The position numbers and the translations under genes are program-made. The notes under the pieces are model-generated. The model searched no databases, was not told the origin of the DNA, and saw only the letters and a program-made list of their open reading frames with translations. Shown here one piece after another: positions 4,109 to 60,271 of a stretch of 64,000 nucleotides of DNA. Positions within the stretch are counted from its first letter, which is position 1. Every line of letters begins with the position of its first letter. Origin of the DNA: Escherichia coli (GTDB lineage Bacteria > Pseudomonadota > Gammaproteobacteria > Enterobacterales > Enterobacteriaceae); NCBI RefSeq assembly GCF_003334785.1, contig NZ_QOWV01000001.1; one strand, written 5' to 3'.

Positions 4109-5161
4109 ATGAATTATCAGAACGACGATTTACGCATCAAAGAAATCAAAGAGTTACTTCCTCCTGTCGCATTGCTGGAAAAATTCCCCGCTACTGAAAA
4201 TGCCGCGAATACGGTTGCCCATGCCCGAAAAGCGATCCATAAGATCCTGAAAGGTAATGATGATCGCCTGTTGGTTGTGATTGGCCCATGCTCAATTCAT
4301 GATCCTGTCGCGGCAAAAGAGTATGCCACTCGCTTGCTGGCGCTGCGTGAAGAGCTGAAAGATGAGCTGGAAATCGTAATGCGCGTCTATTTTGAAAAGC
4401 CGCGTACCACGGTGGGCTGGAAAGGGCTGATTAACGATCCGCATATGGATAATAGCTTCCAGATCAACGACGGTCTGCGTATAGCCCGTAAATTGCTGCT
4501 TGATATTAACGACAGCGGTCTGCCAGCGGCAGGTGAGTTTCTCGATATGATCACCCCACAATATCTCGCTGACCTGATGAGCTGGGGCGCAATTGGCGCA
4601 CGTACCACCGAATCGCAGGTGCACCGCGAACTGGCATCAGGGCTTTCTTGTCCGGTCGGCTTCAAAAATGGCACCGACGGTACGATTAAAGTGGCTATCG
4701 ATGCCATTAATGCCGCCGGTGCGCCGCACTGCTTCCTGTCCGTAACGAAATGGGGGCATTCGGCGATTGTGAATACCAGCGGTAACGGCGATTGCCATAT
4801 CATTCTGCGCGGCGGTAAAGAGCCTAACTACAGCGCGAAGCACGTTGCTGAAGTGAAAGAAGGGCTGAACAAAGCAGGCCTGCCAGCACAGGTGATGATC
4901 GATTTCAGCCATGCTAACTCGTCCAAACAATTCAAAAAGCAGATGGATGTTTGTGCTGACGTTTGCCAGCAGATTGCCGGTGGCGAAAAGGCCATTATTG
5001 GCGTGATGGTGGAAAGCCATCTGGTGGAAGGCAATCAGAGCCTCGAGAGCGGGGAGCCGCTGGCCTACGGTAAGAGCATCACCGATGCCTGCATCGGCTG
5101 GGAAGATACCGATGCTCTGTTACGTCAACTGGCGAATGCAGTAAAAGCGCGTCGCGGGTAA
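4109..5161 (+). CDS. aroG: DAHP synthase, Phe-sensitive
   Basis: 350-aa ORF; MNYQNDDLRIKEIKELLPP matches AroG. Confidence 0.95.
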   Translation: MNYQNDDLRIKEIKELLPPVALLEKFPATENAANTVAHARKAIHKILKGNDDRLLVVIGPCSIHDPVAAKEYATRLLALREELKDELEIVMRVYFEKPRTTVGWKGLINDPHMDNSFQINDGLRIARKLLLDINDSGLPAAGEFLDMITPQYLADLMSWGAIGARTTESQVHRELASGLSCPVGFKNGTDGTIKVAIDAINAAGAPHCFLSVTKWGHSAIVNTSGNGDCHIILRGGKEPNYSAKHVAEVKEGLNKAGLPAQVMIDFSHANSSKQFKKQMDVCADVCQQIAGGEKAIIGVMVESHLVEGNQSLESGEPLAYGKSITDACIGWEDTDALLRQLANAVKARRG

Positions 5162-5170
5162 GGTTTAATT

Positions 5171-5246
5171 GTCGGATGCGCCGTCAGAGTGGCGTATCCG
5201 ATGAATCACCACAGGCCTGATAAGTCGCGCAGCGTCGCATCAGGCA
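5171..5246. repeat. REP-type palindromic elements
   Basis: Imperfect GC-rich palindromes (gtcggatgcg..., gcctgataag...catcaggc) between convergent genes. Confidence 0.6.
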
Positions 5247-5265
5247 ATGTGCTCCATTGTTAGCA

Positions 5266-5305
5266 ACAAAAAAGCCGACTCACTTGCAGTCGGCTTTCTC
5301 ATTTT
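5266..5305. terminator. Bidirectional Rho-independent terminator (aroG / gpmA)
   Basis: agccgact...agtcggct hairpin flanked by an A-run and a T-run. Confidence 0.75.
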
Positions 5306-5318
5306 AAACGAATGACGT

Positions 5319-6071
5319 TTACTTCGCTTTACCCTGGTTTGCAACCGCCGCTGCTTTCGCTGCGATCTCGTCAGCATTACCCAGATAATAGCGTTTCAGC
5401 GGTTTGAAATTCTCGTCGAACTCATACACCAGCGGCACGCCAGTCGGGATATTAAGCTCAAGAATCTCTTCTTCGCTCATGTTATCAAGATATTTCACCA
5501 GCGCACGTAAAGAGTTACCGTGTGCAGCGATGATCACGCGCTCACCGCTCTTCATACGCGGCAGAATAGTTTCATTCCAGTAAGGGATCACGCGGTCAAT
5601 GGTCAGCGCCAGGCTTTCCGTCAGCGGCAGTTCTTTCTCGCTCAGTTTCGCGTAACGCGGATCGTGACCCGGATAACGCTCATCATCTTTAGTCAGTTCC
5701 GGCGGAGTCACTGCAAAACCACGACGCCACTGTTTCACCTGCTCGTCGCCATACTTTTCAGCAGTTTCCGCTTTGTTCAGACCCTGCAACGCACCGTAGT
5801 GACGTTCGTTCAGTTTCCAGGATTTCTCAACGGGCAGCCATGCCTGATCCAGTTCGTCCAGCACATTCCACAGGGTATGGATAGCGCGTTTCAGCACAGA
5901 AGTGTAAGCAAAGTCAAAGCTGTAACCTTCCTCTTTCAGCAGCTTACCTGCTGCTTTTGCTTCGCTTACGCCTTTCTCAGACAGATCCACGTCGTACCAA
6001 CCGGTGAAACGGTTTTCTTTGTTCCACTGACTTTCGCCATGACGAACCAGAACCAGCTTAGTTACAGCCAT
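5319..6071 (-). CDS. gpmA: 2,3-bisphosphoglycerate-dependent phosphoglycerate mutase
   Basis: ORF-track entry trimmed to the internal ATG ([17 protein letters not shown]) preceded by a GGAG RBS; 250 aa. Confidence 0.93.
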
Positions 6072-6096
6072 ATACTTACTCCTCAAATCATCTTTT

Positions 6097-6117
6097 AATG
6101 ATAATAATTCTCATTAT
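6097..6117. promoter_or_regulatory. Fur box upstream of gpmA
   Basis: aatgataataattctcattat closely matches the GATAATGATAATCATTATC consensus. Confidence 0.65.
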
Positions 6118-6272
6118 ATTGCCGCGACGAAGCAACAGCAATGCTTACGCATAACCATAGCGAAAATAGTGGCGCAGTGTAAGGTTGTTGTGAATATTGA
6201 GTTGCAAATATGTCGGTGTTTGCTGGTGATTTGAACAATATGAGATAAAGCCCTCATGACGAGGGCGTAACA

Positions 6273-7313
6273 TTACTCAGCAATAAACTGATATTCCGTC
6301 AGGCTGGAATACTCTTCGCCAGGACGCAGGAAGCAGTCCGGTTGCGGCCATTCAGGGTGGTTCGGGCTGTCCGGTAGAAACTCGCTTTCCAGAGCCAGCC
6401 CTTGCCAGTCGGCGTAAGGTTCGGTTCCCCGCGACGGTGTGCCGCCGAGGAAGTTGCCGGAGTAGAATTGCAGAGCCGGAGCGGTGGTGTAGACCTTCAG
6501 CTGCAATTTTTCATCTGCTGACCAGACATGCGCCGCCACTTTCTTGCCATCGCCTTTGGCCTGTAACAAGAATGCGTGATCGTAACCTTTCACTTTGCGC
6601 TGATCGTCGTCGGCAAGAAACTCACTGGCGATGATTTTGGCGCTGCGGAAATCAAAAGACGTTCCGGCGACAGATTTCAGGCCGTCGTGCGGAATGCCGC
6701 CTTCATCAACCGGCAGATATTCGTCCGCCAGAATCTGCAACTTGTGATTGCGCACGTCAGACTGCTCGCCGTCAAGATTGAAATAGACGTGATTAGTCAT
6801 ATTCACCGGGCAAGGTTTATCAACTGTGGCGCGATAAGTAATGGAGATACGGTTATCGTCGGTCAGACGATATTGCACCGTCGCGCCGAGATTACCCGGG
6901 AAGCCCTGATCACCATCATCTGAACTCAGGGCAAACAGCACCTGACGATCGTTCTGGTTCACAATCTGCCAGCGACGTTTGTCGAACCCTTCCGGCCCGC
7001 CGTGCAGCTGGTTAACGCCCTGACTTGGCGAAAGCGTCACGGTTTCACCGTCAAAGGTATAACGGCTATTGGCGATACGGTTGGCATAACGACCAATAGA
7101 GGCCCCCAGAAACGCGGCCTGATCCTGATAGCATTCCGGGCTGGCACAGCCGAGCAGCGCCTCGCGGACGCTGCCATCGGAAAGCGGAATACGGGCGGAA
7201 AGTAAAGTCGCACCCCAGTCCATCAGCGTGACTACCATCCCTGCGTTGTTACGCAAAGTTAACAGTCGGTACGGCTGACCATCGGGTGCCAGTGCGGGAG
7301 TTTCGTTCAGCAC
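6273..7313 (-). CDS. galM: Aldose 1-epimerase (galactose mutarotase)
   Basis: 346-aa ORF; last gene of the gal operon. Confidence 0.95.
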
Positions 7314-57005: not shown

Positions 57006-57683
57006 TCAGATCTCCGACCATTCCCGCAGCAGATTATGATAAAGATTAAGCAGCGACAGGATCTCTTCACTTTCGCCGTAGCGGCTTTTCAGCGACTGAA
57101 TATTGTTGTCCAGTTCAAACAGCATGGCGCGCTTTTTATCATCGCGGATCATCGACTGGATCCACATAAATGATGCCACTCGTACGCCGCGGGTTACGGG
57201 TGTCACGCAATGCAGGCTGCTGGAGGGATACAACACGAGATCGCCTGCCGGGAGTTTTACCCGATGTTGTCCGAAGGTGTCATTAACGACCAGTTCGCCG
57301 CCGTCGTAGCTTTGTGGATCGCTTAAAAACAGCGTGGCAGAAAGGTCAGTACGCATCCAGCCGTTTTGTGGATGGCTGCGTACTGCGCCATCCACATGGA
57401 AACCATAGGTTTCATTGTTCTGATAGCGATTAAACAGCGGCGTGGAAAGGGTACGCGGCAAGGCCGCGGCAAAGAATAAAGCATGTTGGTTAACCGCGTT
57501 CAGCACCTCATTTTGCAGGGCGGCGTATAACGTGCTGCGGGTGTCGACCTGTTGATTGTTCTTAACTTGCGCACCTTGTGCGCCGGTGGTGACGCGTCCA
57601 TCCACCCATTCGGCTTGTTCCAGTTGTTCGCGAAAACGAGCGACGTCCTGTGGCGATAACACGCCGGGAATGTGGTACATCAT
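57006..57683 (-). CDS. ybiX: PKHD-type Fe(II)/2-oxoglutarate-dependent hydroxylase
   Basis: Start placed at [13 protein letters not shown]; 225 aa; 41 bp downstream of fiu. Confidence 0.85.
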
Positions 57684-57724
57684 ACAATTTCTCCAAAAAG
57701 TGGGGCCTGCGCCCCACATCTGAA

Positions 57725-60007
57725 TCAGAAATGCATATTGGCTGTGAGCAAGAAGGTTCTTGGCTCGCCCGGGTGATAACGGTAGCCGCTCTTGTTGATT
57801 GAGGCGACGTAATCGGTATCAAACAGGTTGTAAACGTTTAGCTGGAAGTCGAGATTGCGATTAACTCGATACCCCAGTTTGGCATCGGCGACCCAGTAAC
57901 CTTCGGTAAACGCTGGCGTTCCCACCGCGCCGTCTGAACCTTTATGCATACTGCCGATATAGCGTGCGCCCGCGCCAACAGAGATATCGTCGGTTGCCTG
58001 ATATTGGCTCCATAAGGTGAAGGCGTGCTCCGGGGTATACGGCAGCGATGAGGAACCATCCTGGGCAACATCTTTGCCGTTTTTGATGGTTGCTTTTTGC
58101 TGGGTATAGCCGCCAATCACCTGCCACGCGGGAGTGATATTCCCGGCCACGGATATCTCATAGCCTTCGACGCGTTTCTTACCGTATTGCGAGTAAGTTC
58201 CGTCATCATTTTGCTCAACTTCATTTTCGATATCAGTGCGGAACAGCGCGGCGGTGAGCAACAGACGTTTATCCAGAACCTGCCATTTGGTGCCAATCTC
58301 GCTGGTGTTGGCTTTTTGCGGTTTAAAATCGGTGCGGTTGGCACTGTTACCGCTGCCAGACTGCGCAAGGGCGAAGTTGTTGCCGCCCGGAGGCTGCTGG
58401 GAAACGGCATAGTTAATATAGACATTGCCGTTTTCCGTCAGGTGATACAGCGCCCCGGCTTTCCAGTTCATCAGATTGCCCGACTTGGCGGTGTCGACGG
58501 TGGTGACCGGAGAACCTTTTGCCACACCAGTTGGGCAGGTGATGGCACCGCGTCCGCTGCCGCCGCAGGCGGTGGCACTGTCATATTCAGTATGATAATT
58601 ATCCAGACGGATCCCGCCGTTCAGCTCAAAATCACGGGTGATTTGCAGCGTATCAAAGGCGTAAATTGCGAAGGTATCCGTCTGACCATTGGCGTTTGCG
58701 CCGTTGCGCGTCAGGCCGCCGGGATGAATGCTGCTGTCAGGATGATAAATATTTACCGCGGGTAACGTCACCGGATTAACGCCGTAGTTAGTCTGCGTTT
58801 CACGGGTAAATTCCACGCCGGTACTGACATCATGACCGATAGAACCGGTATAGAACGTCGAGGTCAGGTTGGTCTGGTTGGTGAGAATTTTATTACTCAC
58901 ATCTTTGGTATTCGCCGTGCGTGACCAGGTCCAGCTATTCACATCGCTGGTGGGCTGAGTAATATTCGACGCCCCGCCCATAATCGCCGTCATCAGGTAA
59001 TCCTGCTTTACGCGCGACCAACGGGTAGTATTGCGAATGGTGGTGTTATCGTTGATGTCGTGCTCAAAACGCATGGTGGCGGTGTCGGTGGTCGAATCGT
59101 CGTAATCGGAATCCGTGCCGTAAAAGTTATGAGTATCAACTTTTCCGGAATGATTCAGGGCCGCCGTTCCCGCAGATGGGGCAGAATAGCCCGGCAAACC
59201 GATGGTCGGAATGCCGCCGTCTGGCGTGTTGTGCTGGGTGACATGCAGATAATTAAGATACAAACGATTCGCTGTACCAAGGCCAAAAGCGACAGAAGGG
59301 GCGACGCCGTAACGCTCATTTTTGACTTTGTCGCGTCCGGCATCGTGCGTTTTTTCGCCCATTACATTCAGGCGCACCGCGGTGGTATCACCAATGACCT
59401 GATTGACGTCCAGCGTGCCGCGGCGGAACCAGGCGCTGCCAATACTGGCGGAGGCGTCAATGCCGGAATCATTGCGCGGCTGCTTGCTGATCATATTGAT
59501 CGAGCCTGTCGGTGCGCTGCGCCCGTAGTCGGTGCCGGACGGCCCTTTAATCACTTCGACCTGCTCGGTATTGAAGGTGTCGCGCGAGACGCTGCCGATA
59601 TCGCGAATGCCATCAATATAAATACTGTTAGAGGTATCGGCACCACGCATATAAATGGCGTCGCCAGTGGTGGAGTTACCGTTCTCACCCGCAAAAAACG
59701 CACCCACGCCGGGGACGTTTTTGAGCGCGTCGGTAAGGTTGGTTGCGCCCTGATCTTTAATCACTTGTTCAGAAATTACCGTCATCGTGCGGGTAGTATC
59801 CGCTACCGGACGCGAGAATTTCGGATCGGCAGATTGTTGTGGCGCATAAAGCGAAGGCGTTGATGCTTCGACAACCAGCGTGTCATCCGCGTTAGTTTGC
59901 CCTTCGGCGGCGAGTGCCTGAGCCACAGGCGTGATGCCAATACAAAGACCGGCAAAGAACGTGAGCGAATGAAATTGTCTGGCAGGGAAATTGCGATTGT
60001 TTTCCAT
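57725..60007 (-). CDS. fiu: TonB-dependent catecholate siderophore receptor
   Basis: 760-aa ORF with a signal peptide, TonB box region, beta-barrel and C-terminal aromatic residue (F). Confidence 0.92.
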
Positions 60008-60111
60008 TTTGCAGGTGACTTTTTCTTATATGTTGAAATTTTCACTGCCACGAGAAAGCCTCTCTGCGGATGCGATGCCACTGTTAATCCCGTGATAGTG
60101 ATCGTGAAAGT

Positions 60112-60136
60112 GATAATAATTTTGATAAGCATTATC
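60112..60136. promoter_or_regulatory. Fur box upstream of fiu
   Basis: gataataattttgataagcattatc is a strong Fur consensus match about 105 bp upstream of the fiu start. Confidence 0.75.
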
Positions 60137-60271
60137 ACTTGGAGCGATTTTCTATCACCCATTGCGCGAAAAAGAAATACATTTATTTACATTGAGTTCA
60201 TATTTGATGTTTTTTGATTACAAAACAGACGAAAACTGCATCCAGAGGCGAATGCAGTTACGTTGGTGGGG

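Follow-up and report, generated by a model that had tools for sequence, protein, structure and literature searches.

The sequence upstream of gpmA in the 64,000-nt stretch of DNA analysed here (the window) is an operator already documented in the literature, the one at which Fur binds the gpmA promoter of E. coli. The best explanation of the whole, which is given a probability of about 0.96, is ordinary Fe2+-Fur repression of gpmA from an operator at 6094-6118 that lies over the promoter. The Fur box on gpmA is confirmed as real, its regulatory role is supported and already known, and it has been in the literature since 2000; the sequence, conservation and literature examined yielded no evidence against Fur binding or repression at gpmA. 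As a discovery the site is of little value. It serves as a check on the sequence-only reading of this DNA, which had located a true operator from the letters alone with an error of no more than 3 bp. The reason why a metal-free glycolytic enzyme should be under iron control is argued rather than demonstrated in E. coli, and it is discussed below together with the conservation of the site.

The gpmA locus

The window is part of the E. coli chromosome and includes the stretch zitB-ybgS-aroG-gpmA-galMKT, with the gene order zitB, ybgS, aroG, gpmA, galM and galK in the RefSeq annotation of identical DNA, and the 1.2 kb around the Fur site is matched in all 5426 complete E. coli genomes, in several at 100% identity. 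In the list of open reading frames aroG occupies 4109-5161 on the plus strand and galM 6273-7313 on the minus strand, with its stop at 6273. Between them lies gpmA (5319-6071, minus strand), named from RefSeq on identical DNA as the gene for the 2,3-bisphosphoglycerate-dependent phosphoglycerate mutase of 250 aa; GpmA matches the NCBIfam equivalog NF010713 over its full length with 467.8 bits (cut-off 305). The list of open reading frames starts gpmA at a TTG at 6086, which gives a protein of 255 aa that is longer than the annotated form. This start was rejected in favour of the ATG at 6071, which is both annotated and supported by the profile and which has a Shine-Dalgarno sequence, GAGGAG, at 6079-6084 on the minus strand. 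The latter was read from the sequence, and its GGAGT core is present in every aligned representative, Samsonia included.

A terminator-like hairpin at 6250-6266 (minus strand; terminator scan together with the layout of reading frames and annotation) follows the galM stop and ends the gal operon. gpmA is therefore a separate transcription unit, and the 201 bp from 6072 to 6272 comprise the tail of the gal operon together with the promoter region that belongs to gpmA.

On the other side of the gene, the convergent aroG-gpmA intergenic region gives a sub-threshold match at 5214-5280 to naRNA4, a family of RNAs derived from REP elements (38.3 bits, with a gathering threshold of 59.5). Strain CDE2901-yvys carries an IS200C element within the aroG-gpmA intergenic region. 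Disruption of the operator by this element was considered and rejected, as it sits in the 3' intergenic region and outside the promoter.

Sequence of the operator

On the gpmA strand, which is the minus strand of the window, the Fur box reads CAATATAATGAGAATTATTATCATTAAAAG, and a longer reading across the site is GGCAATATAATGAGAATTATTATCATTAAAAG. The core of the operator is a 7-1-7 inverted repeat, TGAGAAT-T-ATTATCA, at 6099-6113, which matches TGATAATnATTATCA in 13 of 14 positions and is centred on 6106, corresponding to -35 from the gpmA ATG (6071). The classical 19-mer, GATAATGATAATCATTATC, is matched in 16 of 19 positions at 6100-6118 on the minus strand, and two extra matches of 15/19 are found on the plus strand at 6094-6112 and 6100-6118. 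Together the three 19-mer matches of the consensus scan form an overlapping array, 6 bp out of register, that covers 6094-6118, and an overlapping array with a 6-bp shift is typical of strong Fur sites. The near-consensus box that had been proposed at 6097-6117 thus proved correct, its midpoint differing by no more than 1 bp from that of the motif.

Fur sites were scored here by consensus-mismatch scans and shuffles, and the 27.4-bit score given below is quoted from PMC2189734. The gpmA box is the best match to the Fur consensus in the 64-kb window. According to the shuffles of the search tool, 0.01 matches to the 19-mer with at most three mismatches are expected per 64 kb and one is observed, while for the 7-1-7 motif with at most one mismatch the expectation is 0.00 and two are observed, the second being at the fiu promoter. 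When the whole window was shuffled 300 times with its dinucleotides preserved, 0.7% of the shuffles reached three mismatches or fewer to the 19-mer, and the same threshold was reached in 0.04% of 5000 shuffles of the AT-rich 201-bp intergenic region alone. A scan of 5000-6600 against Rfam gave no match at the Fur operator.

No other site in the window comes close except a cluster upstream of fiu (60106-60137), a double 7-1-7 motif with 13/14 matches at 60123-60137 and 12/14 at 60111-60125 that lies approximately 100-130 bp upstream of the gene. fiu encodes a catecholate siderophore receptor (57725-60007, minus strand; profile score 1507 bits) and is followed by ybiX (57006-57719). Since fiu-ybiX is a classical Fur-controlled operon, the cluster acts as an internal positive control for the Fur scan.

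Position of the operator in the gpmA promoter

The proximal promoter, gpmAP1(-P2), is given in PMC2759082 and its -10 hexamer TATAAT is found at 6113-6118 on the minus strand. The gpmAP1 promoter sequence as printed, AAGCATTGCTGTTGCTTCGTCGCGGCAATATAATGAGAA, is the exact reverse complement of 6108-6146 of the window, and this exact match places the transcription start on an A at 6108 (minus strand), 37 nt upstream of the ATG. The start at -37 was determined by 5'RACE and also by pyrosequencing (PMC2759082). The 7-1-7 motif opens with the last T of the -10 hexamer and has the start site at its position 6, which places that start inside the Fur operator. The claim that the box overlaps the gpmA promoter is borne out in this way, since TATAAT shares its last base with the box and the start site falls within the box.

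The probable -35 hexamer is TTGCTG at 6136-6141 (minus strand), which is placed by spacing with a 17-nt spacer and agrees with the consensus in 3 of 6 positions; its TTGC core is kept across genera. No promoter was called between 5900 and 6400 by a consensus scan, for which the -35 hexamer with its 3/6 match is too weak. The empty result was rejected as evidence against a promoter, given that the start site is known from experiment and the -35 is poor.

A distal start, gpmAP3-P4, is located on an A at 6146 (-75) on the minus strand with a TATGGT -10-like hexamer at 6159-6154. It was detected by 5'RACE only and, according to the paper, lacks confirmation by another method (PMC2759082). Relative to this start the Fur array would occupy +28 to +52. 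A block reading TTTTCGCTATGGT (approximately 6146-6164, minus strand) is kept across enterobacterial genera and falls on the -10 region of the distal start. Its conservation suggests that the second, distal gpmA promoter may be real.

Binding of Fur and proposed mechanism of repression

Direct evidence for Fur at gpmA comes from several published sources. The fragment with the gpmA site came out of a selection for Fur binding in living cells (Vassinova & Kozyrev 2000, cited in PMC2189734). When an information-theory model of Fur sites was applied to the K-12 genome, coordinate 786853, at -35 from the gpmA start, scored 27.4 bits; this site is tied as the strongest in the E. coli genome and belongs to five overlapping Fur sites clustered in 31 bp (Chen et al. 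2007, PMC2189734). This coordinate corresponds to position 6106 of the window, the centre of the 7-1-7 motif. The authors also showed by gel shift that purified Fur at 150 nM retards an oligonucleotide with the gpmA site (PMC2189734). By ChIP combined with expression data, gpmA is a direct Fur target in MG1655 as well as in CFT073, and its binding sites are conserved (PMC7157518); a study of 2023 using ChIP-seq and RNA-seq again assigned it to the direct regulon (PMC10219339).

Deletion of fur in Salmonella Typhimurium raised gpmA 5.6-fold (PMC3212961). GpmA protein increased 3-fold in Edwardsiella ictaluri under iron restriction, and in human plasma Yersinia pseudotuberculosis induced gpmA more strongly than any other glycolytic gene. 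The expectation that gpmA expression is tied to iron status is thus supported by the gel shift, by membership of the direct regulon in ChIP and by the response of the Salmonella mutant. It was to have been abandoned if gpmA did not change between fur mutant and wild type, and a published change exists. The whole word 'Fur' does not occur in PMC9598634, PMC6684088 and PMC2964296, and a Stenotrophomonas review ties gpmA to attachment and makes no link to Fur.

In the mechanism proposed here, Fe2+-Fur dimers would occupy the overlapping hexamer array at 6094-6118 when iron is sufficient. Bound Fur would cover the -10 hexamer and the +1 of P1 and so shut out RNA polymerase, and transcripts from the distal promoter would probably be stopped by the same Fur complex acting as a roadblock. 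When iron becomes scarce, Fur would be released and gpmA transcription would rise several-fold. The array begins inside the -10 element, covers the P1 start and sits approximately 30-50 nt past the distal start, and it is from these positions that we infer occlusion and a probable roadblock, while binding and Fur-dependent expression are taken from the literature.

Conservation across enterobacteria

gpmA loci were sampled by a protein-guided scan with one genome per species, in which the 80 closest relatives listed have 93-100% GpmA identity and represent more than 25 genera of the Enterobacteriaceae plus Samsonia. A 7-1-7 match with at most three mismatches is present upstream of gpmA in 79 of the 80 other species listed, nearly all of them Enterobacteriaceae, a count that does not amount to so many independent events because the species are closely related. 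The centre of the conserved motif usually lies 32-40 nt from the gpmA ATG among these 80 loci. Two Citrobacter species have a perfect 7-1-7 motif, TGATAATCATTATCA in one (L036) and TGATAATTATTATCA in the other (L015). Within E. coli, 5420 of 5426 complete genomes have the 36-mer over the box, 5068 of them with at least 99% identity.

Conservation of the region is confined to short stretches. A 28-nt block, CGGCAATATAAT-GAGAATTrTTATCATT, shows almost no variation, whereas the flanks on either side of it vary. In an alignment with one representative per genus the conserved blocks are the distal TTTTCGCTATGGT, the TTGC core of the -35 hexamer, GGCAATATAATGAGAATTrTTATCATT and the Shine-Dalgarno sequence. 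Across 75 distinct orthologous sequences the near-invariant stretch takes in the box with 11 nt ahead of it and 2 nt behind, and the -10 hexamer TATAAT varies little or not at all, whereas in the promoter spacer and the 5'UTR the most common base reaches a frequency of only 0.33-0.7. Variation inside the box is limited to position 4 (G or T), position 8, the centre (all four bases), and position 9 (A or G).

It might be argued that the match is a by-product of an AT-rich promoter, arising from TATAAT and an AT-rich initial transcribed sequence and conserved on account of promoter function. The Fur box does share its first base with the -10 hexamer in an intergenic region of 39% GC, Fur consensus sequences are themselves AT-rich and resemble -10 elements, and the conserved block includes the -10 hexamer, whose conservation would be expected for promoter function alone. 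Nevertheless, shuffling of this same AT-rich region reaches such a match in only the 0.04% of trials given above, and the invariant block continues for 16 nt beyond the -10, where the DNA is transcribed and plays no part in the promoter. Because conservation extends so far into transcribed DNA, and with the central base of the box free to vary, the pattern of the aligned sequences tracks the Fur palindrome and not the needs of the promoter. The by-product reading is further contradicted by the shift of the site with purified Fur (PMC2189734) and by the ChIP and expression data that make gpmA a direct target (PMC7157518, PMC10219339); it is already refuted by these published results and retains a barely appreciable probability.

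The exception to the conservation of the Fur operator is Samsonia erythrinae (L037), the sole member of another family, the Pectobacteriaceae, and the sole locus without a good Fur box among the 80 listed. Its box is degenerate, TATAATGAAGTCAGTTATCAC, with one half-site kept and five mismatches to the 7-1-7 motif. The link between Fur and gpmA is consequently not universal in the Enterobacterales, and on the evidence of this sequence it may be weaker or absent in the Pectobacteriaceae.

In six loci (L031, L044, L063, L074, L076 and L079), those of Intestinirhabdus alba, Klebsiella michiganensis, Klebsiella indica, Raoultella terrigena and two further enterobacteria, the promoter and Fur box lie 75-160 nt from the ATG, compared with approximately 35 nt otherwise. 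The longer distance is due to a GC-rich insert in the 5'UTR of approximately 40-125 nt between the box and the Shine-Dalgarno sequence. A known RNA element and an ERIC repeat were both considered for the insert, which has no Rfam match and shows only a weak, ungapped likeness to ERIC primer sequences.

Why a metal-free mutase should answer to iron

For the physiological purpose of Fur control at gpmA, two proposals are the likeliest. Derepression would raise metal-free mutase capacity as low iron shifts the cell to glycolysis and as enterobactin synthesis drains precursors, or it would keep glycolysis independent of Mn while Mn is in demand. The sequence-only reading had suggested isozyme switching that spares iron or manganese. 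The iron-sparing form of this idea fails because neither phosphoglycerate mutase uses iron.

The manganese-sparing form is a refinement of the main Fur explanation and no true rival to it. It holds that low iron raises the demand for Mn, through import and Mn-dependent backup enzymes, and that Fur would accordingly derepress the metal-free GpmA, which would free glycolysis from its dependence on the Mn-activated GpmM; we regard it as a plausible but tentative proposal with somewhat less than an even chance of being right. In its favour, GpmA is no metalloenzyme whereas GpmM contains bound Mn, and Mn raises its activity more than 4-fold (PMC2964296), gpmA mutants of Salmonella and S. aureus are hypersensitive to calprotectin-imposed Mn starvation on glycolytic substrates (PMC6684088), and oxidatively stressed Salmonella prefers GpmA (PMC9315381). 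However, E. coli GpmA is already the dominant enzyme (229 versus 1.8-8 U/mg), which leaves a switch hardly anything to replace, and cells that lack GpmA grow more slowly even when no metal stress is applied (PMC2964296). gpmM lies outside the window and is present in MG1655, where the best Fur matches in its upstream region (yibN-gpmM, L083 2017-2260, 244 bp) have 8 mismatches of 19 and 5 of 14. The gpmM promoter is thus without a Fur-like site, and gpmM is absent from the Fur regulon lists of PMC7157518.

As the gpmM promoter has no Fur box, no reciprocal isozyme switch is shown, and with GpmA dominant in addition the arrangement amounts to one-sided induction and not to a demonstrated switch. 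Manganese sparing is compatible with the contrast between metal-free GpmA and Mn-activated GpmM and with the calprotectin sensitivity; the dominance of GpmA and the missing Fur site of gpmM argue against a true switch. The nature of the signal also speaks against it. A metal-sparing system would have a metalloregulator that senses the spared metal, but the box at gpmA is one for Fur, the metal sensed is iron and not manganese, and the mutases are iron-free. No report of gpmA being controlled by MntR was found in the literature read. Iron status is at most a proxy for Mn demand.

A different published rationale ties Fur control of gpmA to carbon skeletons for enterobactin and to carbon flow rerouted at low iron (PMC10219339). 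Along this line the purpose would be glycolytic and precursor flux at a time when iron-rich respiratory and TCA enzymes are curtailed, and the metal content of the mutase would be irrelevant; this is possible, though we would not put it as high as evens. gpmA is grouped with carbon-metabolism genes that respond negatively to Fur and are tied to enterobactin precursors (PMC10219339), pfkA is up alongside gpmA in the Salmonella delta-fur strain (PMC3212961), and several glycolytic genes rise jointly in iron-poor plasma and egg white. On the other hand, gpmA alone among glycolytic genes has a top-scoring Fur operator (PMC2189734), which a general flux argument leaves unexplained. This operator is moreover kept across the enterobacterial genera sampled, in a comparison of gpmA upstream regions. 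GpmA is also not known to be rate-limiting.

Taken further, the manganese-sparing idea would make Fur at gpmA an anticipatory device across the Enterobacteriaceae, with iron starvation serving as the proxy for an imminent demand for Mn, a proposition that is rather unlikely as it stands. If it were true, glycolysis would become fully metal-independent before Mn limits, and gpmA would be the one glycolytic step wired into metal homeostasis. The Fur link itself is known, and what would be new is the Mn-sparing rationale, the depth of conservation and the apparent loss in Pectobacteriaceae such as Samsonia.

Comparison with known Fur targets and mutase pairs

The operator corresponds to the published Fur site of K-12 gpmA (pgm), having the same locus and the same -35 position (Vassinova & Kozyrev 2000; Chen et al. 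2007, 786853). There is no difference of substance between the two, and the window is 100% identical over 1.2 kb to several strains.

A close parallel for a metal-dependent use of the mutases is found in S. aureus and Salmonella, which likewise have two non-homologous isofunctional enzymes, the metal-independent GpmA and the Mn-dependent GpmI (Radin et al. 2019, PMC6684088). In that system the metal-free mutase is induced by metal starvation imposed by the host and is needed for glycolysis at limiting Mn; a whole-word search for 'Fur' in the paper gave no occurrence and thus no Fur-based mechanism (PMC6684088). The fitness effect of calprotectin is described for Salmonella and S. aureus (PMC6684088), and an E. 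coli equivalent was not found in the literature searched. The roles of the enzymes also differ, as GpmI is the housekeeping enzyme of S. aureus, encoded in a glycolytic operon, and GpmA its backup, whereas in E. coli GpmA is the main enzyme.

Isozyme replacements under Fur control are familiar from E. coli, where SodB gives way to SodA and NrdAB to NrdEF. The genes sodA and nrdHIEF are listed beside gpmA in the Fur regulon (PMC7157518). In these pairs the replaced enzyme uses iron and is in some cases down-regulated via RyhB, unlike the phosphoglycerate mutases, neither of which uses iron, and the scan of the gpmM upstream region for Fur sites gave no sign of a matching down-regulation of gpmM. 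What gpmA has in common with the genes for SodA and NrdEF is that a Fur-repressed gene supplies an isozyme with no need for the scarce metal.

In its architecture the gpmA operator resembles the classical repressive operators of fiu, ryhB, entC and fhuA, with which it shares arrays of GATAAT-type hexamers or 7-1-7 repeats, the placement over the -10 and +1, and repression by Fe2+-Fur. The fiu cluster at 60106-60137 in the same window has the same architecture as the gpmA array. Unlike these operators, however, the gpmA site controls a metal-free glycolytic enzyme that has no function in iron uptake, iron storage or iron sparing.
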